Notes: generated from the letters alone by a model not told the origin. Shown: positions 18,697 to 45,300, numbered from the stretch's first letter. The stretch is 64,000 nucleotides of DNA from Acidobacteriota bacterium (GCA_963664705.1 OY761556.1:928001-992000), one strand, 5' to 3'. Made by a program: numbers and translations.

Positions 18697-20238
18697 TTAA
18701 ACTGACGCCTGCTTGCCGCCGAGCTTTGCCAATTCTTCCGCCAGCGCCTGAACAGCGTACCGGATTTCCTCTTCGGTATGGGTTGCGCTGATAAAAAAGC
18801 GCAATCGTGCCGCATCTTCCTCCACGGCGGGATGGACAATAGGCTGAACGTTTATCTTGCGTTCAATCAAGGCCTGGCTTAGCTGCATGCATCGGATGGA
18901 ATTGCCGATGATCGCCGGAATTACCGCAACTCCAACGGCGTGGCCGGTATTGATTCCATGGCTGCGAGCCAGGTCAAGGAAAAGCTTGGATCGGTCTCGA
19001 AGCTGTTCGACCACTTTGGGAAGGCGCTGCATCAGTTCAAGGGCTTTGAGTGCCGCGGCCGCGTTGGGTGGTGCCATCCCTACGGAATACAGGAATCCGG
19101 GTGCCGTAAACTTGAGATAACGGACCAACGGGCTGTTTCCGGCAATGTAGCCTCCACAGCTTGCGAACGATTTGGAAAGAGTACCCATCCAGAGATCGAC
19201 CTCAACCGGGTCCACCCCGGGGAAGTGATGTGCGACGCCTCGCCCTGATGGCCCAAGGACTCCGAGCGAATGCGCCTCGTCGATCAGGAGGTTGCACTGG
19301 AATTTCTTCTTTATTTCAATAAGCCGCGGCAGGTCGCAGATATCTCCATCCATGGAAAAGAGGCCTTCAGAACAGATGAGCGTACGCCGGTATTGGGCGC
19401 GAATCTGTCCCAGGATATGCTCCAGATCCGCTGTGTCCGCATGCTTGAATGGCAGTCGTTTGGCTCCGGAAAGGTAGATGCCCTGGAGAATACTGTCGTG
19501 GCAGAGAGAATCGTGCAGGACCAGGTCGTTCTTATCGTACAGGTGTCCAATGGTGGTTACATTGGTGGCATGCCCGCTTACAAAGACAACCGCATCCTCG
19601 ACGCCAATATGTTGGGCAATTCCTTTTTCAAGATCCCGATGAATTTGTCGTTCGCCGGAAACCGGGCGGCTGGCGGAAACGGAAGTGCCGTATCGGTCGA
19701 TGGCGTCTTTGGCGGCGGCACTCACCTCAGGATGACCGGATAGGCCGAGGTAGTTATAGCTCGAGAAATTCAGCATATCGATTCCATCGATAACGCTGTG
19801 GTTTCTGGCTGTGCCTTCATGAACATGAAAATATGGATTTCTCAATCCGGCCGCTTCAATCTCCAGCAGGCGTTCTCCGATGCTTTTTATCTCCGGGAAC
19901 TTTCTTGTATCCCAAAATTCCGGGTTGGCACCTCCCGGTTGCGGCACCGCTTCGCCTTGAGCTTCAGGCGATTCTTCGGGCAGGCTAAATCCGGACGGAA
20001 GCTTCTTGTGGATCAAATCCAGCAGATCGCGCACATTGCTGAGAGACGCCACTTCTTCATCTGCGATGCGGATCGAAAGGTTTTCCTCGAGCACGCCGAT
20101 CACTTCCATCATGGCTACAGAATCCAGACCCAGTTCAGAAATGGGCGTAGCCGGGCTCAACTGATCGAAGTCCCTCAAATTGACATCGTAAACCGCAGCC
20201 CTGAGCACATTTAGAAGATTTTGATCCGTGCTTTCCAT
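18697..20238 (-). CDS. ACP fused to alpha-oxoamine synthase (serine palmitoyltransferase-like)
   Basis: N-terminal LGLDSVAM Ppant site; NFSSYNYLGL, DEAHSLG, GTLSKSF (PLP Lys). Confidence 0.88.
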   Translation of the reverse strand: MESTDQNLLNVLRAAVYDVNLRDFDQLSPATPISELGLDSVAMMEVIGVLEENLSIRIADEEVASLSNVRDLLDLIHKKLPSGFSLPEESPEAQGEAVPQPGGANPEFWDTRKFPEIKSIGERLLEIEAAGLRNPYFHVHEGTARNHSVIDGIDMLNFSSYNYLGLSGHPEVSAAAKDAIDRYGTSVSASRPVSGERQIHRDLEKGIAQHIGVEDAVVFVSGHATNVTTIGHLYDKNDLVLHDSLCHDSILQGIYLSGAKRLPFKHADTADLEHILGQIRAQYRRTLICSEGLFSMDGDICDLPRLIEIKKKFQCNLLIDEAHSLGVLGPSGRGVAHHFPGVDPVEVDLWMGTLSKSFASCGGYIAGNSPLVRYLKFTAPGFLYSVGMAPPNAAAALKALELMQRLPKVVEQLRDRSKLFLDLARSHGINTGHAVGVAVIPAIIGNSIRCMQLSQALIERKINVQPIVHPAVEEDAARLRFFISATHTEEEIRYAVQALAEELAKLGGKQASV

Positions 20239-20382
20239 GTTCTCACCTGATTAATGTAATACTGTTGAGGCTGTCCTCAGCCGAAGTCAGGCATCATACC
20301 ATAGGTGCTTCGACGTCTTACAGGAAGACATGCACTTGTTGAGTATGGAGGCGGTTTGGCGGTAGGGAAGGGAGGGTGCAGC

Positions 20383-22104
20383 TTAACCTAGAACAAGGCT
20401 TTCGGCACGCTGGGGCGTAGCGCATTGGTTCGAATTGCCCAGCAGGCCATCTTCGAACAGCGCCTTGGTCCTCCGCCGCTGCAGCTTTCCGCTGGAAGTC
20501 TTGGGAATGGATCCTCGCCCGACCAGGACAACCTTATCCACGGAAAGGCTAAAGGCAGAACGAACCTGGTCACTAACGGCGCGGGCCAATGCCACATTAT
20601 CCTGCATGGTGGTTTCTGCGATGATGATCAGCTTCTCGGTGGATTCCCCATCAACCGAGAATGCCACGACGCTTCCTTTTCGGATTCCGGATATCTCCTC
20701 GACCACCCACTCAATGGCCTGTGGCGGATAGTTGCGTCCATTGATGATAACCAGATCCTTCTGTCTGCCCGAAATATATAGATCCCCGTTCAGGATGAAT
20801 CCGAGATCCCCTGTGTGCAGCCATCCCCCTTTCAGGAGCTGGCTGGAGGCCTCCGGGTTTTGAAAGTAGCCGGGAGTGACGCTGGGGCCCTTGAACACAA
20901 TTTCGCCGACCTTCCCCTCGGGGAGCGATTTGCCCTTCTCATCCAGAATTCTGAGTTCGTGTTCTCTGAAGGTCCGTCCGCAGGAAACGAGTTCAAATCT
21001 CTTCTTGGGATCTCCGTCGTCATCACCATTCAATGGCACCGCAACGTTTTTTGACTCGTACAGATGCCGGTTGAGTACCAGCTTTCGTACGGGGCGGTGC
21101 AAATGATCAAACGCGATCGCAAGCGTCGCCTCGGCCATCCCGTAGCAAGGCATGATGGCGTGCGATTTGAGTCCCCAGGGTTCGAAGGTGGACAGGAATT
21201 TTTCCATTGTCCTGGGATTGATCGGTTCGGCGCCGCATCCCAATACACGCAGGCACGACAGATCCAGTTCCATCCTGGACTTTTTCGGTGCGCGCTTGGT
21301 CGCAAGATCGAATGCGAAGTTGGGGCCGAAGGTAATCGATGCCCGATATTTGTGTACTGTTTCCATCCAAACCGCGGGGTGTTTTACAAATGCAATCGTC
21401 GGAATGAATATCGCCGGTATCTGCGCCACGAGAGTCGAAATGACGAATCCGATCAAACCCATGTCGTGATACAACGGAAGCCAGGAAACCGCCCGGTCAA
21501 AATCCGGCTTTATCTCCAGGGTCTCGATAATTGCATGAGCATTTGCAATGAGGTTGCGGTGCGTTACCACAACGCCGCGCGGAGCCGAGGTGGATCCGGA
21601 GGTGAACTGAAGGAAACATGGATCGTCAGGCTTGATAGTGAATTCCTGCAGAACGATATCCGGGTCGGCATTTCTCAGCCGCTGAACATTCAACAGCTCT
21701 TTTAGTGCAGGCAGACGGGAGAGAAGAGGATCCAGGACAGGGATAAAATCCCCGGTGGTGATCAACGCATTCGCGCCGGAAACACGCAGGATACCGGTCG
21801 CCCGCTCGAGATAGTTGTCCATTCGGCCAAGCGCCAGCGGGGGATAAAGCGGAACGGGCATAAGCCCGGCAACGATGGTGCCCAGGAATGTGAGGACAAA
21901 GTCTTCCGGAGAGTTCAGCACAAGGGCAACACGGTCTCCCTTTGCCAGACCCATCGCCTGGAGAGAAGCTCCGATGCGCTTCGCTTCCTTAAAAACGTCG
22001 GCAAAAGACCAGTCCGTGGGATTCAGGTCGTTATCAAGGAACGTATAGCCTTTGTGCGTTATAGACGAAGCCGCATCGCGGGCATCGGTAAGCGTTCCTA
22101 ACAT
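20383..22104 (-). CDS. Fatty acyl-AMP ligase (acyl-ACP synthetase)
   Basis: FLQFTSGST, SWLPLYHDMGLIG, YGMAEAT followed by FAAL-type insertion, PKTSSGKLQR. Confidence 0.9.
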   Translation of the reverse strand: MLGTLTDARDAASSITHKGYTFLDNDLNPTDWSFADVFKEAKRIGASLQAMGLAKGDRVALVLNSPEDFVLTFLGTIVAGLMPVPLYPPLALGRMDNYLERATGILRVSGANALITTGDFIPVLDPLLSRLPALKELLNVQRLRNADPDIVLQEFTIKPDDPCFLQFTSGSTSAPRGVVVTHRNLIANAHAIIETLEIKPDFDRAVSWLPLYHDMGLIGFVISTLVAQIPAIFIPTIAFVKHPAVWMETVHKYRASITFGPNFAFDLATKRAPKKSRMELDLSCLRVLGCGAEPINPRTMEKFLSTFEPWGLKSHAIMPCYGMAEATLAIAFDHLHRPVRKLVLNRHLYESKNVAVPLNGDDDGDPKKRFELVSCGRTFREHELRILDEKGKSLPEGKVGEIVFKGPSVTPGYFQNPEASSQLLKGGWLHTGDLGFILNGDLYISGRQKDLVIINGRNYPPQAIEWVVEEISGIRKGSVVAFSVDGESTEKLIIIAETTMQDNVALARAVSDQVRSAFSLSVDKVVLVGRGSIPKTSSGKLQRRRTKALFEDGLLGNSNQCATPQRAESLVLG

Positions 22105-22333
22105 AAACTCCCCATAAGACCGAAACGCGTCACGTTAACGCTTGATTTCCTAATTATTAGCCATGGGCAAATCGAAAATCCGGCCGCCTCGAGTGCCTGT
22201 GGGCTGCTATCAATAAACATATCCGGATGACGCATCGAACATAGCCTTTTTCTGTCAGACTTGCAATGAGTTTCCGTTATTCGGCCTTCCATTTGTTTGC
22301 ATATCCCAGGATTAGAATTTCGTAATGTAAGGG

Positions 22334-23326
22334 TCACAGCCACCCATGGTTCCGGTACCATTCGACGGTGCTCCGCATGCCGTCTTGCAGGTTGATTTGC
22401 GGACTAAACCCCAGGAGCTTGCGTGCCTTCGTTGTGTTGCATAGCCAGCAGGGGTGCAGGAGTTCCCTTACTTTCTGGCTGCTGACCGTTGAGGGTCGCT
22501 TGGTAATGCCCGCCCACAAATCCCCGGCAAAACCAGCCATCTTGGCAATAAGCGGCGGGAAAGCAATTCTGCGATATGTTTTGGCCAACTCCTGAGCGAT
22601 CGTGCGACCGACTTCATCCCAGGTATATATTTCCTCACGCGAAATAAAGAAGACCTCGCCCGAGGCGATGGATAGCTCTCCGGCAAGGATAAGGGCATCG
22701 GCCAAGTCGTCGACATGGATGAGGCTGAAACGCCGTGTGAAGCGGCCTGGAGTAAAGAGACAGCCCCGCTGAATCATGCGGAAGATCAAAAGTGTTTCAC
22801 GATCGCCGGGTCCATAAACAGCGGAAGGACGCAGAATCGCAACGTGAAAAGCTTTGGCAAAGCGCAGCACCTCTGCCTCGGCCGCCAGTTTACTTTCTCC
22901 GTACCAGGAAATCGGCTTGGGCGGATAGTCTTCGGTGAGGCCCGTTCCATCGGAGCTTGGACCGGCGGCGGCAAGGCTGCTCACGTGAACAAAGCGGCGA
23001 ATACCGGAACTTTCCGAAAGAGCTTCCAGGAGTTGTCGTGTGCCGATCTGGTTGGTTTGGAAAAAGGCATCGCGATTGGCGGCCTTGATGGCTCCGGCAA
23101 CATGATAAACAGTTTCGATCCCCGTTACAGCCTTGCGCATGCCTGCCGCATTTCCCAGATCTGCGAGTTGCAGCCGGATCGGCATTTTTGCGAGCGCGCG
23201 CGTGTCACTCGTGCTGCGCACGAGGCAGGTAACCGCATAGCCCTTTTCAATCAGTTTCCGGACGAGGTTGATTCCGACGAATCCTGTCGCACCTGTAACC
23301 AGCACTGCGGGTTTTATTTCAGTCAT
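22334..23326 (-). CDS. NAD-dependent epimerase/dehydratase, probable ceramide reductase-like
   Basis: TGATGFVG, VSSLAAAGP, YGESK; cluster context. Confidence 0.8.
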   Translation of the reverse strand: MTEIKPAVLVTGATGFVGINLVRKLIEKGYAVTCLVRSTSDTRALAKMPIRLQLADLGNAAGMRKAVTGIETVYHVAGAIKAANRDAFFQTNQIGTRQLLEALSESSGIRRFVHVSSLAAAGPSSDGTGLTEDYPPKPISWYGESKLAAEAEVLRFAKAFHVAILRPSAVYGPGDRETLLIFRMIQRGCLFTPGRFTRRFSLIHVDDLADALILAGELSIASGEVFFISREEIYTWDEVGRTIAQELAKTYRRIAFPPLIAKMAGFAGDLWAGITKRPSTVSSQKVRELLHPCWLCNTTKARKLLGFSPQINLQDGMRSTVEWYRNHGWL

Positions 23327-23438: not shown

Positions 23439-25610
23439 CTAAAGAAGCAATACGGAGAGTAATAAAAGTGGAATCATGAGATAGGAAGTCATTGCCATGC
23501 CGACAAGAGGCGCAAAAAACAGGCTGGCCAGGATCGATCCAAGACAACCCCCGATAAGATCAGCGGCATAAAGGGGGGTAACTGCCGCACGTTGATCGGA
23601 TGCGTCGTGGAAGCCGGCGTAGGCGAAGATTGCGGCCACCAGGATTCCGGTCATGACCAGGAAGGCAAAGCACTGTGAAAGGGAGGCAATGGCTCCCGCC
23701 GCTATTTGCCTGCCCATTACTCCGCTAAGAATGACAAGGCTTCCCAACAGGAGGATGCCGAGAGTCTTGGGCGGATTGAGACTGAGCCTCTCAATGACAT
23801 AGCATCCCAACGCCAAACCGGCCATAAAGCCTGTAAGAAGAAGTCCCAGGTCTTGGAAGAGCACACCGCATTTGGTCTGGAAATATAAAATCAGCACGGT
23901 TTCCAAGGTCATTCCCGAAAAGGCGACAACTCCCATGAGCAGCGCGCGCCGGATTGGCCAGCGAGCCCAGGTCAGCAGCAATGCCGGGATGCTGATAGCC
24001 AGCAGCCAAAGTACTTTGCGGTCAAAACGGACTTCGGGAATGGAGGGATCCCAATACCGGGCGGATGGGAGCAGTTTGGAGAGCCAGATCATGGCGGTGT
24101 ACTGATAGCAAACAGGACGAATATCGGTGTTCATGGGTGCGCGGGAGGATTCAAGCGTTTTCGCGATTTCCTGAAAACGATCATTCGTGAATAGGTATCG
24201 CAGGTAAGGCGGCGATACAATTTTTGTCTTCAATTGCCTTTCGACAAATCTGGATGCCAGGAGCGCCGGATCCCTGGTAAGGGCTCCCATGGAACAGACA
24301 ACGACATTCGTGCTTCCGGGAATAAAAAGGACCTCTGAAAAAGCCGACCGGGCGGCACGGTAGATGCCTGTCATCCTTCGCGTCAATTGCGGACTCCAGA
24401 TGTTCTCGGACGATTGGAGGCTGAAGGCAATTACTCCATTCGGGTTCAGCTTTGCCCGGCACTGCCTGAAGAATTCGCTTGTGTAAAACCGATTGGCCTG
24501 TCCCGAGCTGGGTTCAGGCATGCCGATGAGAATCAAATCATAGGACAGGGCGGCTTCGAGAAACTGGCGGGGATCCGCGACAATGATCCGGACATTGCTT
24601 GCCTGCAGCGATTTTTGAATTTGCGGTGTCTGGTTGGGGGGCACCAAGTCCAACAGCGTTTGATTCAGCTCCACATAATCGACGACTTGGGGAGAGTGCA
24701 TCAAGACCTGGTAAACAGTGCCTTCAATGCCCCCGCCGAGGATAAGCACTCGCCGTGGATTGGAATGCTGGAGCGCCGCCAGATGAACAAATTCCTCCGG
24801 GCGTGTGGATTCCGTATCAAACAGCAGAGCATCATTCTCAAAAACGGAGACCTGCCCATCGAGAAACGTGACCGTGATTCTTGAATACGGGGAATCCTGG
24901 GCATCCACCAGCGTGGGATGGGTCCAGGCTGTCATTTGGCGGTCAAGCGTGGGAGCTTTCCATACCAGAAACATCAATCCGGCAACCAATGCCAGGGCAA
25001 GCGCCCGCATTTTTTCGAGGGAATGCCCGTCGAAATCCAGGAAGGAGCATCCGGCGGCGACCAATGCGCACAGGAGAGCAATAAGAAAATTCTGAAAACC
25101 GAAACGCAGCAGCAAGGTGGCGCTCAAACCGCCGGCAAGCCCGCCAATACTCTCAATGGCGTATGCCGTTGCCAGCGATCTTCCACTGTCAATCGCAACC
25201 CTGGCGCTCCAGCGGAAAAGAAGTCCGAGGAGCAAACCTACCGGAAGAATGGACGCACCGATTGCTGCAATCTGGGTGGGCAGGGGAAGATAGGCTCCAG
25301 GAAGATCGGTCAGCCGTAGCCGAATCGATCGGATAAAGGCGATGTCCAAAGGGAGAATGATGGCGAATAACAGGAAGAACAGGTTTATCAGAAAAATAGA
25401 CGGAGCGGATGACCGCGAGCGCCGGAGCAAGGTGCCGCATGCGGTTGAAAGCATCCATATCCCTAGTGCCAGTGTATAGACCAGTTCAATTCCATAAGAG
25501 GCCACGCTCAATTCGCGCAGCAGCACAACCTGCCCCAATATAGACAGGAATCCCACCCCCAGGAGATATCCAATGCTGGAGTCGGATCGACGCAATCCTT
25601 GCATAATCAT
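23439..25610 (-). CDS. Polytopic membrane protein with central spermidine-synthase-like SAM-binding domain
   Basis: N- and C-terminal TM blocks; SPY, ILGGG, YVELN, DPRQF, ANRFYT.EFF; start uncertain. Confidence 0.85.
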   Translation of the reverse strand: MIMQGLRRSDSSIGYLLGVGFLSILGQVVLLRELSVASYGIELVYTLALGIWMLSTACGTLLRRSRSSAPSIFLINLFFLLFAIILPLDIAFIRSIRLRLTDLPGAYLPLPTQIAAIGASILPVGLLLGLLFRWSARVAIDSGRSLATAYAIESIGGLAGGLSATLLLRFGFQNFLIALLCALVAAGCSFLDFDGHSLEKMRALALALVAGLMFLVWKAPTLDRQMTAWTHPTLVDAQDSPYSRITVTFLDGQVSVFENDALLFDTESTRPEEFVHLAALQHSNPRRVLILGGGIEGTVYQVLMHSPQVVDYVELNQTLLDLVPPNQTPQIQKSLQASNVRIIVADPRQFLEAALSYDLILIGMPEPSSGQANRFYTSEFFRQCRAKLNPNGVIAFSLQSSENIWSPQLTRRMTGIYRAARSAFSEVLFIPGSTNVVVCSMGALTRDPALLASRFVERQLKTKIVSPPYLRYLFTNDRFQEIAKTLESSRAPMNTDIRPVCYQYTAMIWLSKLLPSARYWDPSIPEVRFDRKVLWLLAISIPALLLTWARWPIRRALLMGVVAFSGMTLETVLILYFQTKCGVLFQDLGLLLTGFMAGLALGCYVIERLSLNPPKTLGILLLGSLVILSGVMGRQIAAGAIASLSQCFAFLVMTGILVAAIFAYAGFHDASDQRAAVTPLYAADLIGGCLGSILASLFFAPLVGMAMTSYLMIPLLLLSVLLL

Positions 25611-25714
25611 GGGGTCAACTGGTTTCCTATGGTTGCGCCAAAAAGCCCAAATATGCGGCAAAATCGCGCCTTATGGGTCTGTTTTTCCATTTCCACTCAC
25701 TACTATTGAATCTA

Positions 25715-27274
25715 TTATTTTTCTCCCGGTCCGCCACCGGCGAATTGCGATTCGCTGAAGACGTCTGCCTGAAAGATCTGGAATTCGGCGCCCTGTTTCC
25801 AACAGCCGGATGTGATGCCTGCCTTTCTGCAGAGATTGTCGAGCATCTCTGTCCGGCTCCACTTATTTTCGGTTGCCACCTGCGGCAGGAAGACGGCGGA
25901 GCGTCCTGCCTTGGACAGCAGCACGCCATCGCGGCCTACGACGATTTCACTGACAGAGGCTATGGGCTGCATCGGCGTGAGCACAGAAATTTCAATCTCC
26001 AGGTTCTTGAGTTCACTCCATTCCACGGGAGTGAATCTGGGATCACTGAATGCCGATTGCAGCGACATCATGCCGACGGTTTTGCTCAGTTCGGTATTGC
26101 TGGCCATTAGCCCGATGCATCCCCGCAATTCTCCTTTTTTGCGCAGCGTTACGAAAGCTCCCTGCCGCACTTTCAACCTGGCGGGGAAATCAACGGTTGG
26201 CTGCGGGGCCTGGGGGGATAGGTGGTGAAGGATGGTTGCCCTCGAGAGAGACAGAAGCATCTTCTTTTCGGCGGGCTGAAGCGGCGTTGTGCCCGAAAGC
26301 CCGGGGATTTCGCGATCCAGTGCCTGGGCCGACGCTGCGCCCGAATCCAGTACAACAGCTCCGTACCCTACAATACGGGACCGATCTCCGCCGGGCGTAT
26401 CTCCTGAGTTCGCATAACTCGCCACAAAAGCGCGCCTGGCTCCAAGGCTTTTGGCCGCAGTTATTCCGGCAATAATGGCCGCTTCTCCACACGCCCTTGT
26501 TGCAAGATTGGGCACATCCAGTTCTTTCATCGTGGAGGCAAATCGGACCGTGTCGAGGGATGCGATGGCGTCCAGCGTCTGGTGGTCTGTTTTGGATGCA
26601 TTTTCATAGGATGGATAGTGGGACAGGTCGGAGCTGATCACGATCAATGCGCGACGATTCTTCAGTACTTTGCCCAACGCTTTTCCAAACCGGACGCACA
26701 TATCGTAATCGGGCGGATGAATGATGGCCGGCACAACAAGGGCTTTGGGGAAGAGTACCTGGATAAACGGAAGCTGTACCTCGATGGAATGCTCGGCAAT
26801 ATGGACCTGTCGGCTCTGAACGCAATCCTTGCATTCAGATAGCAGCGCGGCGGTGAGATTGGTGTCAACGGGAATTTCGCCCAGAGGCGTGCGCAGAGCG
26901 CCGTAATTGCCGAGGGAAACGCCCCTAAAATCCCCGGTTGTATGATTCACGCCAAGAATGACGATGGTGTCATAATTGACTCCCATCGCCTGTCGATAAC
27001 CATTCGCGCAAATTTGCCCGGAGTAAACATACCCGGCATGGGGGACAAGGATGGCGATAGGATTGCCGGCATTTCCCGTGGCGGAGCGCTTTAGGTATGC
27101 TTCGATGGCAGATCTCAGTTTTTCCGGGTCCGAGGGATAAAACTGGCCTGCAACTGCCGGAGGGCGGACATCGGTTTCCGCGGCGGATCCGATTTGGACT
27201 CCACAGAGAAGCAATACCATGGTTGCCGGAAGCATTTTCCAGCGGATATGCAAAACCGGAGAGATAAATCTCAT
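25715..27274 (-). CDS. amrB: AmmeMemoRadiSam protein B (Memo) + protein A (AMMECR1) fusion with N-terminal signal peptide
   Basis: RPPAVAGQFYP, PHAGYVYSG, EHSIEVQLPF, SSDLSHY; GAFVTL..LRGCIG, DPRF, FLPQVA, LCRKAG. Confidence 0.93.
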   Translation of the reverse strand: MRFISPVLHIRWKMLPATMVLLLCGVQIGSAAETDVRPPAVAGQFYPSDPEKLRSAIEAYLKRSATGNAGNPIAILVPHAGYVYSGQICANGYRQAMGVNYDTIVILGVNHTTGDFRGVSLGNYGALRTPLGEIPVDTNLTAALLSECKDCVQSRQVHIAEHSIEVQLPFIQVLFPKALVVPAIIHPPDYDMCVRFGKALGKVLKNRRALIVISSDLSHYPSYENASKTDHQTLDAIASLDTVRFASTMKELDVPNLATRACGEAAIIAGITAAKSLGARRAFVASYANSGDTPGGDRSRIVGYGAVVLDSGAASAQALDREIPGLSGTTPLQPAEKKMLLSLSRATILHHLSPQAPQPTVDFPARLKVRQGAFVTLRKKGELRGCIGLMASNTELSKTVGMMSLQSAFSDPRFTPVEWSELKNLEIEISVLTPMQPIASVSEIVVGRDGVLLSKAGRSAVFLPQVATENKWSRTEMLDNLCRKAGITSGCWKQGAEFQIFQADVFSESQFAGGGPGEK

Positions 27275-27316
27275 GCCTTGCTCCTTCGATGGTCTGCGTG
27301 TCCTGCTATTTGCCTG

Positions 27317-28510
27317 CTACGCCCAGACTCCCGCGATTTCTTTCCCGCAGTATTTGCAGGTGCCTCGGTTCATATGGATGCCTGCTATGAAGATGGAACT
27401 TCGTTCGATGACGACCTTCCCGCATCTCGGGCAGTAGGTTTGATTCCCGGGATGGTTGGGGACATTCCCGACATAGGCGTAATGAATCCCCTTTTCCATT
27501 GCATAGTTCCTGAAGCGCTCCAACGTTGCGATGGGAGTCGGCGGCAGGTTCAGCAGCTGGTAGTCGGGATGAAAGCGCGTGAAATGGATCGGAACATCCG
27601 GGCCGATTTCGCCCATGATCCAATCCACGAGTCCCTGCAGCATTTTTTTTGAGTCATTCAACGTCGGGACAACGAGATTTACGATCTCGAGATGAATGCC
27701 GCTTCTGGCAATCTGGCGGATGCTGTTGAGAACGGGCTGAAGCTCGGCGCTGCAGACTCTCCTGTAGAAATCCGGGCTGAAACCTTTCAGATCGATTTTG
27801 ATGGCATCCAGAACGCGGCACAGCTCAGACAGCGGTTCCGTGTTCATGAATCCGCAGCTGACCATGACGCATCGCAATTTCCTTTTCCTTGCAAGTTCGG
27901 CGGTGTCGGCCAGATATTCGATAAACACTGTAGGTTCATTGTAGGTAAAAGCAATTACCGGGGATTGTTTGGATTCCGCAGTACTGACCAGTTCGGCCGG
28001 CTGCACAAAAGGAACGCTGAAGTCCTCCGGTCGTGATTGAGAGATCTCCCAGTTCTGACAGAATTTGCAATGCAGGGGGCATCCGGAGGTGGCGAATGAG
28101 AACGCCTCCGATCCCGGAAGAAAATGGTAGAAGGGCTTTTTCTCAATGGGATCCACATGGATGGCAACGGGCCTTCCGTAGACCAGGCTGCGCAGCTCGC
28201 CGTCAACATTCATCCGCGCCCGGCATTTCCCCCGATCTCCGCTTTTCAATATGCAGCCCTGGGCGCACAGAAGACACTTGATGAAAGCAGGCTTGCCCGT
28301 ATGCGCCGCCGCCCGGAGGTATGTTTGCTGTCCGTGACAGACAGAACAGGCGGTTCCAGTTGAGGTCGAGGCCCAGTAGCGGGCTTTCGGAGCCATCCGT
28401 GCCAGGTCGGAAGTGCGGTCGAAGAACGACGGGTAGGCAAAAGCCAGACCTGCTCCAACAGTGGAGCCAAGGCCGGCCGCTGAAATGAGGAATTTGCGTC
28501 GGGAGATCAT
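27317..28510 (-). CDS. amrS: AmmeMemoRadiSam radical SAM enzyme with Tat-like signal
   Basis: SRRKFL; DPIEKKPFYHF.PG, CPLHCKFCQNWEISQ, YNEPT, TYCPRCG. Confidence 0.93.
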   Translation of the reverse strand: MISRRKFLISAAGLGSTVGAGLAFAYPSFFDRTSDLARMAPKARYWASTSTGTACSVCHGQQTYLRAAAHTGKPAFIKCLLCAQGCILKSGDRGKCRARMNVDGELRSLVYGRPVAIHVDPIEKKPFYHFLPGSEAFSFATSGCPLHCKFCQNWEISQSRPEDFSVPFVQPAELVSTAESKQSPVIAFTYNEPTVFIEYLADTAELARKRKLRCVMVSCGFMNTEPLSELCRVLDAIKIDLKGFSPDFYRRVCSAELQPVLNSIRQIARSGIHLEIVNLVVPTLNDSKKMLQGLVDWIMGEIGPDVPIHFTRFHPDYQLLNLPPTPIATLERFRNYAMEKGIHYAYVGNVPNHPGNQTYCPRCGKVVIERSSIFIAGIHMNRGTCKYCGKEIAGVWA

Positions 28511-28592
28511 GCTGTCCTTCCGCTGCTACGATAATCCCCAGATAACCATGTGTCAATCAGCCGAACGTGGCCGAACGTGGCAGAAAAGCGGA

Positions 28593-28612
28593 GTATATCC
28601 ATATGGATATAC
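28593..28612. promoter_or_regulatory. Perfect 20-bp palindrome between divergent genes (putative operator)
   Basis: GTATATCCAT|ATGGATATAC. Confidence 0.55.
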
Positions 28613-28760
28613 CTAGGGCTAGATAAGAACCATATTTTCCGGGGGAATTACCCCCTGTCATGGTAAAATCGGCGAGCTTTACTAATCTGGCTTGGCTATT
28701 GGCGGCTTTACAGGATCGAAAGTTATCTTTTTACGTGGGTATGGAGGAGGGATAAGGGCG

Positions 28761-29012
28761 ATGAGTGATGAAGATATCAAAGCGGAACTCGAGAGATTGC
28801 GGGCGGAAAATGAAGCTCTCAAACGGTCTTCTTCCAAAGGACTGTCTTTGAGAGTAAGCGAAAAGGGCGCTGTTTCGGTATATGGACTCGGACGGTTTCC
28901 TGTCACGCTCTATAAGGAACAATGGCTTCGACTTCTGGATATGTCGGAAGATATCCGGATGTTCATCAATCAGAATGAAGCGCAGCTTAAATCCAAGGCC
29001 GCGCAGTCTTAA
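28761..29012 (+). CDS. Conserved small hypothetical protein
   Basis: Coiled coil + VSEKGAVSVYGLGRFPVTLYKEQW. Confidence 0.8.
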   Translation: MSDEDIKAELERLRAENEALKRSSSKGLSLRVSEKGAVSVYGLGRFPVTLYKEQWLRLLDMSEDIRMFINQNEAQLKSKAAQS

Positions 29013-29248
29013 TTTCCCGAAATCTCGCAGTACACCCTACACGATTCCGAAATTCTGCTGTATCGTTCCAATGAGGTGTATTCGGCAGATGCGAGCCGGG
29101 AGTCGGAATGCTTCTGCGCAACGGGGAGCATTCCGATTTCCGGCTCGACGGCCTTCTTCGGATCTCTCGCTTCAAGTTCCTTGACTTCTGACTCCTGAAA
29201 CAGTTCGTTCTGTGGTAACTTTTGGGGCAGCGTATGGAGGAGTATCCC

Positions 29249-29968
29249 ATGACGGACTATTCCATTCTTGAACGCGACCTCTGCGAAATTCTTAGCCTTT
29301 CGAAACGGCCTGTAGCTGTTACCTTTCGCAAAAACGCTCCTGCCGGAGTCGTCCGATTTGCCGGAGACGAACCCTCGGGGTGCAGTTTCTGGAAACTGGC
29401 GGCGGGAGGAATGACCTTTTATACGATTCCCGGCGACCATTGTCGTTGCGCTCTGGGACGATACACGCATGGATTTCCTCGGTTGCCCGGACACGATGGG
29501 GAATTGGAGAATGCGATTTCGATGCTGAGCAGTAGCGGCTATATAAAAATGGAAGAACTCCATTCCATGCCGCACCTCCGGGAGGCACCCCAGGCTGTCG
29601 TTTATTCTCCGCTGGGAAATGCTCCGGTGGATCCGGATTTGGTAATCATTGTTGCCCGTCCCATGCAAATCATGCTGCTGCAGGAATCGGCAATGCGTGC
29701 CGGCGTCGGGCTGCAGCTTTCGCTATTTGGCGGGCCGACGTGCATGTCACTTCCAGCCTCTCTGGGGCAGCATGGGATGATCACAAGTGCCGGTTGCCTG
29801 GGAAACCGTATGTACAATGAGCTCGGGGATGATGAGCTTTATGTCATCTTTCCGGGCAGCGTGCTGCAGAGAATTGCCGATGAGGTCCAGGGGATTGCCG
29901 AATCGACCGCAAGCAGAATGGAGTATTACAAAGGGCGTCGCAAATCTCTCGAGACTCCGCGGGAATAG
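29249..29968 (+). CDS. DUF169 family protein
   Basis: PVAV.F, GCSFW, C..G, DPDLVI, GCLGNRMY..L.DDE; RBS GGAGG. Confidence 0.85.
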   Translation: MTDYSILERDLCEILSLSKRPVAVTFRKNAPAGVVRFAGDEPSGCSFWKLAAGGMTFYTIPGDHCRCALGRYTHGFPRLPGHDGELENAISMLSSSGYIKMEELHSMPHLREAPQAVVYSPLGNAPVDPDLVIIVARPMQIMLLQESAMRAGVGLQLSLFGGPTCMSLPASLGQHGMITSAGCLGNRMYNELGDDELYVIFPGSVLQRIADEVQGIAESTASRMEYYKGRRKSLETPRE

Positions 29969-42054: not shown

Positions 42055-42323
42055 CTGTTTTTGCCAATGGCGGCATCTGTTCTGTCCGGGATGCCGGCAC
42101 GCTCCGATTTTTCGTAATTTGCCCGAATTGAAACTCCCATTGTACTAGAAAGCCGTGATTTTCTATAATGGGCTGCCCTTGAATCAACCCCTCGCTTGCA
42201 TCTGTAGTTCCCTCGGAGTGAGGGCGCCCTTTTGAATTTAGACGCGCGATAGCCGTTGGTCTGTGTAACTTCTAAAAATTAGTGTCTTTGCAGTGGCCTG
42301 CCACCATTTGTCAGGGAGCGTCT

Positions 42324-45300
42324 ATGAAGGCAATGACCAAGCACCTCAAGGATGGCTTCAAACTGAATGATCGCTACCAAATTGAAGAAATGCTGGGGAT
42401 TCAGGACATAGGACAGCTTTATCGCTGCAGCGATCGCGCCACGGGGCGGGGTCGGGCGAGATTGCGGATTCTTTTCGGCGAGTCGCTTGGAGTAGCGGAT
42501 ACAGCGGCTATGAGCGGAGCCTTATCGCTGCTTCGCAGATTGCAGCACCCGAATCTGGGGCGCGTCTTGGATTATGGAATCATTAAGGGGTCTCAAGATC
42601 TGTTTGTCGTTCAGGAATGGGTGGATGGCAAGGATATATGGGTTGGAACCGAGGATGTGGAATTTGAAGAGCTGTTGAGTATTTTGATCGATGTCGTTCA
42701 GTCTGTGCATTACTTGCATACACGCGGACTGGTTCACGGCTGTTTGAATTCCTCGAATATCATCCTGGCCAAGAATGGGAAGGGCACGAGGCCAAAGCTG
42801 TTGGATTTCGGCCTGGTGCGAAGCCTTCCGCAGCATGGAGGCAGCAGACTAGGGAATCCCGTGCACTTGGCTCCAGAGCTTTTGTTGGGTGGAGCCGTCA
42901 CCCAAAGCTCCGATCTGTATTCTCTGGGAATCCTGATTTATCAGTTGTTGACGCGCCGGCTTCCTTTCGAAGATGTTGACCCCGGTTTTCTGGTGGAAAA
43001 GCGCCTGCAGGTAAACATCGATCTGAGGCCGATAGGGCGTCTTAAGAATGGCGCCGTATTGAAGGAGATGTTGTGCAATCTGCTGGAAAGAGATGCGGAT
43101 AAACGATCCGGATCCAGTGAGGGCGTCTTACGGGGGTTGATAGAAGTACTTGGACGCGATACATCACGCCGGAATGCCAGGGATTTGCGAAACCTGTTCT
43201 CCTCATCGCGATTCGTCGGCAGGGACAACGAGCAGAGTCTTCTCAAGAAGTGCGCTAGCCAGGTGGAGGTGAACGGGCGAGGGTGGACCGTGTTTGTATC
43301 CGGAGAAGGAGGTTTGGGGAAGAGCAGGCTTTTGGAGGAATTTTCAAGCTGGGCCCGTTTGGAAGGCTGGCGGGTAATTGAAGGAGCCTGCGATACGCGC
43401 CACCAGGAGCCTTACGGGCCCTACCGGCAGATTCTGGCTCAGACGGAATCCATGAGTGGAGAATCCATATTCCGTTTTGAGAATACGTCACGGTCACAGG
43501 AAATGAGATCCTTTGAACCATCTCCTGAGTTTGCTGCCGGCCAGTTCCGGGATCTTCTGACCCGGGAGCTTGTCCGACGGTTGAGCGTGTGCCCAACCTT
43601 GCTTTTACTGCATGACTTTCATTTATCTGATGAGGCTACCAGTACTGTTCTGGACTATCTGAGTTCGGACATTCAGACGCACCCGATATTGATGTGCGTG
43701 AGTCTGAGATCCTGCGAGGACGCAGGTGGAGGAATTAACCGCGCCATAGAGCAGGCTCTGAGGCAGCAGCGGGGCGAGGTTTTGAACCTTGAGCCTCTGG
43801 TTGAAGGTAGTGTAGGTGAGCTTGTGGCCGGGATTACAGGCGATGCCAGGCTTAAAGGTACCCTGGGATCGTGGATGTATAACAATATAGGAGGAAACCC
43901 ATTCTTTATTGAGGAGATGTTGAAGCATCTGGTGGAGCAGGGATTGCTGCGTTGTGAATTGGATCGATTCCGGTTCAGGAATAGGGATTTGCAGAGATTG
44001 GAAGTGCCTGAAACGATTGGAGCGGTACTGCAGCGTCGACTTGTGCACCTGTCTTCAGCAGCGGGAAATCTGGCAAACTGGCTCGCCTTATTTCACCGGC
44101 CGATTACCAAAAGCCTCCTGACATCGATTTTGGAGTGGGAGGATGCGGAGGTAGCCAAAGCTTTGCAGGAGCTGAGGGAACGGCAGTTGGTGCGGATTGA
44201 AATGGGCGATGCGTTTGAAGTTATTGAGTTAGGCCACGTTCTCTTTGCAGAAGTCATTCGAGGGAATTTGCCGAAGGCTAAGCGCTTGAGGATGCATAGA
44301 AAGATAGCCGAGGTTCTGGAGCGGGAATATGGATGCGAAGGGAATCTCCAGGAATTGGCAATGCATGCAATGGAAGGGCGGACGGGGGTCAAGTCTGTCC
44401 GATATGCGCTGACATTGGCGACTCAGTCCCATGCTGAATTTGCCCACGAAAAAGCACTGCAATGCTATGAATATGTGTTTCGTCATCGAGGCGACCTGAC
44501 GGAGGCCGACCTTTGCCAAGCCGCCATCGAAGCCAGCGATACAATGTTTGCACTGGGAATTCCGACCCAAGCTATCAGGCTTTTGAAAAGAGAGATGAAT
44601 TGGTGCGGCAATATCGATCAGGAATTAAGGGCGGGATTGTTGATGCAATTCGCGGTTGCATATAAGCACTTAGGAGATTTGATTCGAAAGGATACATTTT
44701 GTAAAAAGGGGCTTCATTACCTTCGCCATTCACGTTTTGATAAGAATCCAACAAAAGCATTGCTATGGGCCGAACTGGCTTTCAACGCTATGCTACGATC
44801 TAATCCAAAACTTGGACTAAGGTTGTTAAAAAAAGCCCAATCTGCCTGTCCTGAATCCAATTCAGGGATTCTGGCTGGCAGGATACAAAACCTCGCGGCA
44901 TCTCTTCATCGAGTGGCATGCAACTTCCAAAAGGCTCTCATTGCAGGCGAGAAAGCGGTTAGTATTTTTACCAAGTGTGATAGTTCCTTTCTAGTTTGCT
45001 CCGCCTATTCAACTTTGGGCTTGGTTTTAATGGGCCTAGGAAGATTTTCACTTGCCCTAAGAATGCATCAAGATGCTGTCACGGAAAGCGAAAAGAATCG
45101 CTCGGTCGCGCTAAGGGCTCAAGCATCTGCCAATCTACTAGAGTGTTTGTGCAAAATGGGGCGAATGACAGAAGCTGCGGAGTTGGCCGAAAATGCCAGC
45201 GAATATATTTATGGGCTACAGAATCCATCCATAAGAGATGCTTTTATTGTCATCATGGCCGAAATTAAGCTAAACCTTTGCGATTACAGTGGAGCGCTTG

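Follow-up and report, generated by a model that had tools for sequence, protein, structure and literature searches.

A second, signal-bearing AmmeMemoRadiSam copy with a transporter-like membrane partner, predicted to act outside the cytoplasm

Radical SAM enzymes depend on SAM, on a low-potential reductant and on shielding of their clusters, and for these reasons are regarded as cytoplasmic. Three adjoining genes on the minus strand of a 64,000 nucleotide stretch of an Acidobacteriota bacterium genome (GCA_963664705.1 OY761556.1:928001-992000; the whole stretch is referred to as the window) raise the question whether such an enzyme may also work outside the cell membrane. They encode the AmmeMemoRadiSam radical SAM enzyme AmrS, a fusion of Memo and AMMECR1, and a membrane protein with a spermidine-synthase-like domain. 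A sequence-only reading of this DNA had described both enzymes as apparently exported and had noted that nucleic-acid modification is proposed for the triad. The latter agrees with excerpts of Balaji and Aravind 2007 (PMC2034487), where RNA base modification is proposed for AMMECR1. Among papers on AmmeMemoRadiSam, on Memo/AMMECR1 with radical SAM and on fused MFS/spermidine synthases, mostly represented by their titles and the first lines of their abstracts, no description of this variant was found. Papers on radical SAM enzymes with twin-arginine, Tat or periplasm, represented in the same way, gave no report of extracytoplasmic radical SAM chemistry. The one mention of radical SAM in the excerpt of PMC10924467 is a neighbouring gene named in a figure legend. 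The Tat signal in the excerpt of PMC13128918 belongs to constructs made with a CueO leader; by the authors' account, the compartment in which the radical SAM enzymes HxsB and HxsC reside could not yet be assigned.

Inspection of the window confirmed the triad and its membrane gene at the place where they had been read, with gaps of 42 nt between amrS and the fusion and about 100 nt between the fusion and the membrane gene. AmrS (27317..28510, 397 aa) scores 366 bits against TIGR04337 (cut-off 220), the match starting only at residue 76 after an N-terminal extension of about 75 residues, and also matches PF04055. The amrB-amrA fusion (25715..27274, 519 aa) scores 252 bits against TIGR04336 over residues 37-308 (Memo, cut-off 26) and 168 bits against TIGR04335 over residues 339-506 (AMMECR1, cut-off 99), and matches PF01875 and PF01871. 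Components A and B and the radical SAM enzyme are thus all above their curated cut-offs. As in the canonical system defined by these three models, AmrS has retained its N- and C-terminal Cys clusters and the radical SAM motif C144-x3-C148-x2-C151 (28058..28081), whose three cysteines are invariant across Tat-type and non-Tat AmrS. The AMMECR1 domain has retained RGCxG and DxRF, as RGCIG and DPRF; the motifs are given as RGChG and DxRa in the excerpts of PMC2034487. The module departs from the canonical system in that its AmrS bears a Tat leader as well as a CxxCH insert, the Memo and AMMECR1 domains form one protein that starts with a Sec or lipoprotein leader, the constant third partner is a membrane protein of MFS/SpeE-like type, and the whole module is an extra copy alongside a signal-less set.

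The N-terminus of AmrS, MISRRKFLISAAGLG, follows a ribosome binding site (GGAAGGA) placed 4 nt upstream of the ATG. Residues 1-25 (28436..28510) are predicted to be a twin-arginine signal peptide, judged by eye and by pattern from SRRKFL, a G/A/S-rich h-region and AFA before Y26. This and all other signal and topology calls were made from motifs, hydropathy and the positive-inside rule, that is, by our own heuristics rather than by trained predictors. R4 and R5 are invariant in an alignment of 106 close relatives (106/106), and among the best 120 homologues of AmrS a pattern search picked up the RR motif in 113, the remaining seven being apparently truncated at the N-terminus. No conserved methionine that could serve as an alternative downstream start was seen in the 106-sequence alignment, where M39 of the window is a threonine in the consensus. 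The leader is modelled with a pLDDT below 50. The genome encodes two TatC matches above cut-off.

The fusion likewise starts behind a ribosome binding site (GAAGGAG, 6 nt upstream of the ATG). Its residues 1-32 (27179..27274) are predicted to form a Sec-type signal peptide, probably cleaved after SAA. This leader, MRFISPVLHIRWKMLPATMVLLLCGVQIGSAA, stops exactly where the alignment with the signal-less AmrB of the same genome begins (ETDVRPPAVAGQFYP vs MSTRDAAYAGQFYP), the paralogue starting at the equivalent of residue 33. In every one of the 68 readable neighbouring fusions the AGQFYP motif is preceded by a strongly hydrophobic segment; 59 of them also have an in-frame methionine, and 15 of those 59 a strict lipobox. 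Good lipoboxes are found in many relatives. A lipobox in the fusion of the window was considered and rejected, as LLLC has an atypical leucine at -1, and a signal peptidase I site was read instead. Both the twin-arginine start and the Sec-like leader proposed by the sequence-only reading are borne out by these observations; the ribosome binding sites and the conservation of the signals themselves place the true starts upstream of the signals, not downstream.

Signal-less homologs of all three components (AmrS2, AmrB2 and AmrA2) were found in the same genome, dispersed over three other places, and 34 of the 35 sampled genomes with a close AmrS have at least two AmrS matches. By these matches, the operon is a second, signal-bearing AmmeMemoRadiSam copy beside a signal-less set. 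In a tree of 114 AmrS cores, from which the N-termini had been removed, 80 Tat-type rows and one unclear row form a clade of 81 rows (SH-aLRT 94), and none of the 32 non-Tat rows falls within it. With the pattern-based states of six rows corrected by eye, the tree has two changes of the Tat state. This suggests that Tat-type AmrS is essentially one clade with one origin. The export-type N-termini are conserved across phyla.

The fusion lies directly downstream of AmrS in 67 of 72 loci with room for it (68 if an overlap case is counted), and among 65 loci with a sufficiently long flank the membrane gene is present in 59 and all three genes are together in 57. The expectation that signal-bearing amrS and fusion genes occur with the membrane gene therefore holds as a strong tendency, the gene being seen beside none of the 32 non-Tat AmrS within the stretch fetched, but not as a rule, since it is absent from six of the 65. 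The fusion is missing from four loci, and AmrS stands without either partner in three, including that of Desulfonema magnum. In a sample of 401 genomes from the phylum, a membrane-protein match was found within 5 kb of 25/36 AmrS with at least 55% identity, 35/63 with 46-54% and 2/51 with 45% or less; many of the 11 of 36 close matches that were not beside a membrane gene are on short contigs.

The membrane partner (23439..25610) has 723 residues from the ATG at 25610, and a start at an upstream TTG at 25661 is possible. As had been read, it is polytopic with a spermidine-synthase fold: it has 7+7 predicted helices (14 in total) and a PF01564 domain at residues 289-422 of its 740-aa frame. The AF2 model has a pLDDT of 90.3 and a pTM of 0.90. 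Its membrane part superposes with VIA-align on MFS transporters over 330-350 residues, with Z scores of 29.8 for VMAT2 (9KQA), 29.2 for VAChT (8ZMR) and 27.1 for SotB (6KKI) and a range down to 22 when OxlT, NorA, MdfA (4ZP0) and LacY are included. The 12-helix core is that of DHA1/VMAT-type MFS proteins (Z 23-30). Where these have a cytoplasmic central loop, the protein has two extra helices with an outward domain of 300 aa on them, and its sequence matched no Pfam MFS family. A Foldseek search with the whole model listed only SpeE chains; the MFS match came from VIA-align. A weak lead came from an atlas, where the N-terminal half found only clusters in which 16-24% of the members bear MFS_1. 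The model NF037959, "fused MFS/spermidine synthase", gave 19 bits against a cut-off of 40. An internal repeat was weakly seen (hhalign probability 48%), and the idea of an inverted 7+7 repeat was rejected, as TM2-5 align with TM10-13 without inversion in the hhalign result and the fold is that of MFS proteins. Judged from the model, the membrane partner is an MFS-fold, transporter-like protein with a spermidine-synthase-like domain set between its halves on two extra helices.

The termini and the central loop of MFS proteins are cytoplasmic. With one extra helix on each side, the insert of the membrane partner is therefore expected outside. Furthermore, the K+R count in the loops of 46 homologues is 8.57 inside vs 2.0 outside in the N-terminal half and 8.39 vs 1.28 in the C-terminal half, and the charge bias in both halves therefore also places the adenosyl-binding domain outside. 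Consequently, the spermidine-synthase-like domain (residues about 225-525, 24036..24938), of class I Rossmann type, is predicted to face the periplasm.

This domain has the complete SpeE fold (Z 30.4 to Thermus 1UIR over 269 residues, rmsd 2.4 A; 3ANX is also from Thermus), and by sequence it matches spermidine synthase with an E value of 2e-16. The ribose-binding and adenine-binding acids of Thermus SpeE are conserved, E314 in at least 90% of the sequences and D346 in all of them. The SpeE motifs D-x-x-D-P, which is catalytic, and GGGDG are both changed in all 43 aligned sequences: the former reads G-M-P-E-P, its P365 and P367 being invariant, and the latter GGGIEG. The bit scores against the spermidine-synthase equivalog models are 75 for TIGR00417, 80 for PRK00811 and 105 for PRK03612 (cut-offs 250, 260 and 472). 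The alignment thus indicates that the adenosyl site of the inserted domain is kept and its catalytic aspartate lost.

A further feature of AmrS is a CxxCH motif (C55-S-V-C58-H59, 28334..28348), invariant in the alignment (106/106) and found in 119 of the 120 best homologues, in which no second CxxCH was seen elsewhere in the protein. It sits in an insert of about 30 residues specific to the clade of the window and missing from the sister clade and from non-Tat AmrS, and its loop is modelled with low confidence (pLDDT 54-61). The motif is a possible haem c attachment site, and three matches of the cytochrome c assembly family are present in the genome. Since proteins that receive haem c are as a rule unfolded substrates of Sec, CxxCH on a Tat substrate is unusual. 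A second, downstream histidine as distal haem ligand was rejected, as none is conserved.

In the sister clade, the module consists, in this order, of a gene for a DUF362 protein with a Tat signal, Tat-AmrS without CxxCH, and the MFS/SpeE-like protein. Its AmrS belongs to the same clade (sister subclades 97* and 100* within the 81-row clade), the membrane partner is the same, and signal-bearing Memo-AMMECR1 fusions are found nearby in part of the loci. Loci of the sister clade have the DUF362 gene, always with an RR leader of its own, in 18 of 20 and 16 of 20 cases, whereas it was seen in none of 80 CxxCH-type loci and is absent from the window. By gene content, the insert and the DUF362 gene are complementary, the clade of the window having the former and the sister clade the latter. 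This complementarity, the clade-wide insert, the MFS fold and the altered adenosyl-binding domain with its predicted outward orientation go beyond the sequence-only reading and are new here.

On balance, we consider it probable that this second, signal-bearing copy acts outside the cytoplasm, on an envelope or periplasmic substrate. AmrS would fold and be loaded with its Fe-S clusters in the cytoplasm before export through Tat, the fusion would leave through Sec, as a lipoprotein in many relatives, and the membrane protein would expose its adenosyl-binding domain to the periplasm. Among the steps beyond this, joint activity of the three proteins at the outer face of the inner membrane is the one in which we are most confident. 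With less confidence, the MFS part is suggested to move a small cationic molecule outward, the preferred candidate being SAM or a SAM-derived compound. The outward domain, with its adenosine-binding acids kept and the base for aminopropyl transfer lost, may retain this molecule, pass it on to AmrS or salvage it for the enzyme. The suggestion that the membrane protein supplies SAM is made concrete by its MFS transporter fold. We are least confident that the CxxCH insert would carry haem c and pass electrons from periplasmic carriers to the clusters of AmrS, a role that the Tat-exported DUF362 protein might take in the sister clade. Export of AmrS and the fusion, haem attachment and SAM supply are predictions from sequence. 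The complete scheme of periplasmic radical SAM chemistry is put forward tentatively: an MFS exporter with its own outward SAM-docking domain would feed AmrS, electrons would arrive via haem c or DUF362, and AmrS together with Memo-AMMECR1 would modify an envelope lipid or other envelope molecule. Neither SAM nor a reductant with the strength that a radical SAM cluster requires is known outside the cytoplasm, and this counts against an outward-acting module as a whole.

SAM might not be transported at all if AmrS left through Tat with SAM already bound and acted once, like an activase, on Memo-AMMECR1 or on the substrate, with the MFS protein moving the substrate or product. It is established that Tat exports folded, cofactor-loaded proteins. 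Moreover, the nearest solved fold of the AmrS core is that of the pyruvate formate-lyase activating enzyme (PDB 3C8F, 3CB8; Foldseek E 3.5e-14, target-normalised TM 0.80 for 3C8F), an activase of a single protein substrate, and excerpts of PMC2034487 suggest that a radical is held on the conserved cysteine of AMMECR1. Unlike the activating enzyme, to which it is 15-17% identical, AmrS has extra Cys-rich N- and C-terminal parts, and it scores far below all cut-offs of the glycyl-radical activase NCBIfam models. Against single-use export, one turnover per exported Fe-S enzyme would be costly, and neither the outward adenosyl-binding domain nor the conserved motif or partner that resembles an entry point for electrons is explained. 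We therefore regard single-use export as unlikely.

Alternatively, the membrane protein may export a polyamine or other amine, its outward domain binding the amine or dcSAM, and the module may make or attach a modified polyamine in the envelope, with no SAM supply involved. The spermidine-synthase fold speaks for this, and the best structural matches of the MFS part, of VMAT/VAChT and DHA1 types, carry amines; polyamines fit that part as well as SAM. However, the replacement of both SpeE motifs and the low equivalog scores make this improbable, and dcSAM would still be required outside. Highly doubtful is the view that the proteins remain cytoplasmic, with an RR leader that acts in proofreading of cofactor insertion or in tethering to the membrane, comparable to the vestigial Tat motif of NarG, and a fusion leader that is not cleaved and anchors the enzyme on the inner side. 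Cytoplasmic enzymes that carry remnants of a Tat motif are known, and no SAM or reductant would be needed outside, but the RR motif is canonical rather than degenerate and precedes an AxA-type site, two or three proteins of the module each have their own signal type (Tat; Sec or lipobox; Tat on DUF362), a leader with a positive N-terminus inserts N-in and leaves the enzyme outside, and three arguments predict the domain of the membrane partner to be outside.

If the preferred reading of an outward-acting module is correct, a widespread and conserved set in which the radical SAM enzyme, the Memo and AMMECR1 domains and the SAM-type domain carried by a transporter are all directed outward would overturn the assumption that this chemistry is cytoplasmic, and export of SAM or a derivative would be implied. 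If the complete scheme holds, the module would represent the first radical SAM system outside the cytoplasm, and its membrane protein the first SAM exporter of MFS type. The Memo/AMMECR1/radical SAM triad, whose function is unknown, would gain a second, experimentally separable context, and knock-outs with lipid or metabolite profiling would reveal an envelope substrate more readily than an RNA base would be found. Human disease-linked homologs exist for both Memo and AMMECR1. An envelope module would also bear on the isoprenoid/nucleotide proposal for Memo of Burroughs et al. 2019, the abstract of which is said to read the contexts of Memo as pointing to isoprenoid as well as nucleotide modification.

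Upstream of amrS, a sigma-70-like promoter match (TTGACA-17 nt-TATCGT, 10/12 matches) lies on the minus strand at 28528..28556, 18 nt from the ATG; the region has five such sites vs 4.0 expected by shuffling, and the match is weak evidence. Besides the module itself, no further conserved gene was found around AmrS in 80 loci. Downstream of the operon lie genes for an HpnA-like SDR (22334-23326), a fatty acyl-AMP ligase (20383-22104) and an ACP-fused aminotransferase (18697-20238). These lipid-type genes were considered as members of the system and rejected; no loci other than the four closest (L015, L016, L021 and L029) have them after the module, and they are treated as local neighbours.

The three genes of the operon follow one another in the same direction on the minus strand, and their identities agree with the sequence-only reading. 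The first gene, amrS (28510..27317), encodes 397 aa and matches TIGR04337 with 366 bits against a cut-off of 220, the match beginning only at residue 76. The N-terminal extension ahead of it opens with MISRRKFLISAAGLGSTVGAGLAFA/YPS, in which a canonical twin-arginine motif is followed by a hydrophobic stretch rich in G, A and S and by an AxA-type site. The second gene (27274..25715) encodes the Memo-AMMECR1 fusion of 519 aa (TIGR04336, 252 bits; TIGR04335, 168 bits), is preceded by GAAGGAG, and begins with a 32-residue leader whose N-region is positive and whose core is hydrophobic. The AMMECR1 motifs RGChG and DxRa, as defined by Balaji and Aravind 2007 (PMC2034487), read RGCIG and DPRF in this protein. 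The third gene (25610..23439) encodes a membrane protein, 723 aa counted from ATG, with a spermidine-synthase-type PF01564 domain flanked by two seven-helix blocks. A sigma-70-like site is found 18 nt 5' of the amrS ATG, although such sites are not commoner here than in shuffled sequence. A terminator scan also returned a near-perfect 22-bp palindrome, GGTATATCCATATGGATATACT (28592-28613), located about 40 nt upstream of this promoter-like site, which could be an operator.

The claim that both enzymes carry export signals was borne out, with all signals called by motif and hydropathy only. The amrS ATG has GGAAGGA 4 nt upstream, and no conserved Met usable as a downstream start was found in an alignment of 106 AmrS sequences in which R4 and R5 are invariant. 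These ribosome binding sites and the missing downstream Met argue against true starts behind the signals. The 120 best AmrS homologues are 66-80% identical to the query and nearly all about 398 aa long; 113 of them have the RR motif at the N-terminus by pattern, and the other seven begin further in and look truncated. Fusion leaders were read in 80 related loci from named genome records, spanning Acidobacteriota, Thermodesulfobacteriota, Ignavibacteriota, Bacteroidota, Calditrichota, KSB1, Latescibacterota, Myxococcota and others. The N-terminus was readable in 68 fusions, and every one of them has, ahead of the AGQFYP motif, a 10-residue stretch whose Kyte-Doolittle mean is at least 1.9. An in-frame Met precedes this stretch in 59 of the 68, and for the other nine a GTG or TTG start is probable. 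A lipobox closes many of the leaders, the strict pattern being passed by 15. These leaders vary widely in sequence yet keep their signal character, which looks like selection on a signal peptide. Furthermore, the genome encodes TatC twice.

A search of the whole 6.9-Mb genome revealed a second AmrS (269 bits, above the cut-off; 365 aa) with the N-terminus MATLTD and no leader, a separate AmrB of 268 aa with the N-terminus MSTRDAAYAGQFYP, and a separate AmrA of 184 aa, all three signal-less and located at three separate sites. The predicted mature end of the fusion (ETDVRPPAVAGQFYP) aligns with the very start of the signal-less AmrB. Together this indicates that the organism has the operon as an additional copy, with signals, beside an ordinary set. 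Of 401 sampled genomes of the phylum, 35 have an AmrS match of at least 55% identity, and in 34 of these at least two AmrS matches were likewise present. The genome also holds a third Memo-family gene (locus L009, C1:4324417-4328307; 413 aa, TIGR04336 130 bits), whose product has an N-terminal extension of about 160 aa without a signal; its neighbours are a gene of 328 aa and one of the response-regulator/PP2C-like kind.

The Tat-type AmrS form essentially one clade. The tree was calculated from 114 AmrS cores (319 columns; quick IQ-TREE with SH-aLRT) trimmed at the first conserved Cys motif, which keeps the leaders from driving it; only the even-numbered of the first 80 loci, the close relatives, were used, and L112 and L162 were left out because of over-extended frames. 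A clade of 81 rows (support 94) contains 74 that are Tat-type by pattern and seven that are not, of which six have clear RR leaders by eye and one, L165, is unclear. With these six counted as Tat-type, the tree shows two changes of the Tat state, the second at the long-branched L108 just outside this clade. Within it, the window's type makes up a subclade of 35 rows (100), and the remaining 46 rows another (97), the sister type.

The three genes are linked. Among the 80 close-relative loci, the sequence downstream of AmrS extends for at least 1.9 kb in 72 and for at least 4.2 kb in 65. The fusion lies within 1.5 kb downstream of AmrS in 67 of the 72, with L020, where the genes overlap, as a 68th, and is missing in L025, L036, L049 and L052. 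The membrane gene is found within 6.5 kb of AmrS in 59 of the 65 (not in L017, L025, L036, L043, L049 and L050), and all three genes in 57. No further gene is common to the 80 loci, the fourth-largest cluster being an antisense shadow frame. We are highly confident that the three proteins form one functional unit. Three loci, L025 (the Desulfonema magnum chromosome), L036 and L049, have a Tat-AmrS of the window's type with neither fusion nor membrane gene in flanks of up to 8 kb on each side; the partners may be located elsewhere in these genomes or be dispensable.

In the phylum sample, adjacency was counted among the matches listed, the first 150 each for AmrS and the membrane protein. An AmrS lies within 5 kb of a full-length membrane-protein match in 25 of 36 cases at 55% identity or more to the window's AmrS, in 35 of 63 at 46-54% and in 2 of 51 at 45% or less. 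Short contigs account for many of the AmrS that are not adjacent, their genomes having the membrane partner at another place. Since likeness to the query and not the signal defines the tiers, the N-termini of 80 further stretches were also read. RR leaders were present in 20/20 mid-tier loci picked for adjacency and in 19/20 non-adjacent ones, and in the lowest tier in 9/40, with none in 31/40 (pattern and eye). In the fetched stretches the membrane gene is located beside 50 of 81 Tat-type rows versus none of 32 non-Tat AmrS (the 31 and the second copy of the own genome), a comparison biased by 20 loci preselected as adjacent and by unequal flanks (4 to 8 kb). Signal-bearing AmrS accompany the membrane gene far more often than non-Tat AmrS do, but not invariably. 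One genome of the sample has two AmrS of the window's type, each with a membrane-partner match a few kb away (G312:C26 and G312:C22).

An AlphaFold2 model of the membrane partner, built on a 43-sequence alignment, reached pLDDT 90.3 and pTM 0.90. Foldseek listed only spermidine synthases with this model, and a VIA-align search of 48,161 representative chains matched Thermus SpeE with Z 30.4 over 269 residues (rmsd 2.4 A), in agreement with the spermidine-synthase fold of the sequence-only reading. In the same list MFS transporters rank interleaved among the SpeE chains, over 330-350 residues: VMAT2 (Z 29.8), VAChT (29.2), SotB (27.1), OxlT (26.6), MdfA (22.8) and LacY (22.2). Profile comparison of the helix blocks paired TM2-5 with TM10-13 in the same orientation, as a weak match (probability 48%). 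The protein thus has an MFS core in which helix 7, a 300-residue domain and helix 8 take the place of the central loop. The termini and central loops of MFS proteins are cytoplasmic, and one extra helix on each side would therefore lead the inserted domain out. In 46 homologues, K+R numbers in predicted inner versus outer loops are 8.57 versus 2.0 for the first helix block and 8.39 versus 1.28 for the second. On this bias in both blocks and the MFS architecture, the SpeE-like domain is predicted to face outside. It shares with SpeE the fold and the acids holding ribose and adenine (E314, nearly invariant with at least 90% of sequences having it, and the invariant D346), whereas the catalytic D-x-x-D-P is changed to G-M-P-E-P and GGGDG to GGGIEG. 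Every spermidine-synthase equivalog model scored far below its cut-off on the protein. From these residues we read the domain as a putative adenosyl-binding module rather than an aminopropyltransferase.

Right behind the leader, the AmrS clade of the window has about 30 inserted residues that include C55-x-x-C58-H59, a motif placed about 20 residues N-terminal of the invariant C-x2-C-x3-C-x9-C cluster motif. CxxCH is found in 119 of the 120 best homologues, never twice in a protein, and is invariant in all 106 aligned sequences; neither the sister clade nor the non-Tat AmrS have it, and one Smithella sequence within the window's clade has lost it. The loop is modelled at low confidence (pLDDT 54-61). 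Cytochrome c assembly genes are present in the genome, and haem binding by the motif is conceivable, though we lean slightly against it. The sister clade instead has a gene of about 330 aa (PF04015, DUF362), with an RR leader of its own, directly upstream of AmrS. This gene was found in 18/20 and 16/20 loci of two mid-tier samples and in six Tat-type loci of the lowest tier, and was found neither in the 80 loci with CxxCH, nor in the 64-kb window, nor in the 20 loci, all non-Tat, of the second lowest-tier batch. Such mutual exclusion suggests that insert and DUF362 protein do the same job, which we infer may be electron entry. The order DUF362 gene, then Tat-AmrS without CxxCH, was observed in sister-type loci L092-L111, L113, L115-L118, L122 and L152-L171, where the genes are often translationally overlapped with the MFS/SpeE-like gene.

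The reading of an exported operon is supported as far as computation reaches, and we consider it likely that its proteins work outside the cytoplasm. Tat would export AmrS already loaded with its clusters, the fusion would follow by Sec or as a lipoprotein, and with the SAM-type domain of the membrane partner pointing outward, the three proteins could cooperate on an envelope substrate at the membrane's outer face. A haem c carried by the insert might wire electrons from the periplasm to the AmrS clusters. The MFS core may export SAM or a related cation, which the outward domain would dock, unless it scavenges an adenosyl by-product; that the membrane protein supplies SAM we regard as somewhat less likely than not. 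As the AmrS core fold is nearest to that of PFL activating enzyme, a protein- or partner-bound radical is as likely as a small-molecule substrate. The gene contexts of Memo were reportedly extended by Burroughs et al. 2019, with a link to modification of nucleotide bases and aliphatic isoprenoids. A radical has been suggested for the AMMECR1 cysteine by Balaji and Aravind (PMC2034487). Our literature searches turned up neither an exported AmmeMemoRadiSam variant, although Burroughs et al. 2019 may list such a context, nor a periplasmic radical SAM enzyme. The surprise is the predicted place of action of an otherwise known, uncharacterised AmmeMemoRadiSam system.

Directly downstream of the operon, three lipid-type genes are located on the minus strand (18697-23326). 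They encode an HpnA-like SDR of 330 aa, found by family-model scan, and two proteins named from their translations, a fatty acyl-AMP ligase-like protein of 573 aa and a 513-aa aminotransferase of the 8-amino-7-oxononanoate synthase / serine palmitoyltransferase type, whose N-terminal part resembles a carrier protein. Only the four closest Acidobacteriota loci show this trio behind the module. Divergent from the operon are a 106-aa ORF without family match (28692-29012, plus strand) and a DUF169 gene (29222-29968, plus strand), which recur upstream only in the closest relatives. Further away, a protein of 1803 aa (42282-47693, plus strand) combines in a single polypeptide a Ser/Thr kinase, an AAA_16 (STAND-type) ATPase, TPR, GAF and a sigma-54 activator domain; the stretch holding it has a GC content of 0.45-0.46 versus about 0.54 elsewhere, and its gene is adjoined by one for a MASE9/HD_5/GAF/GGDEF protein (47705-50095, minus strand).
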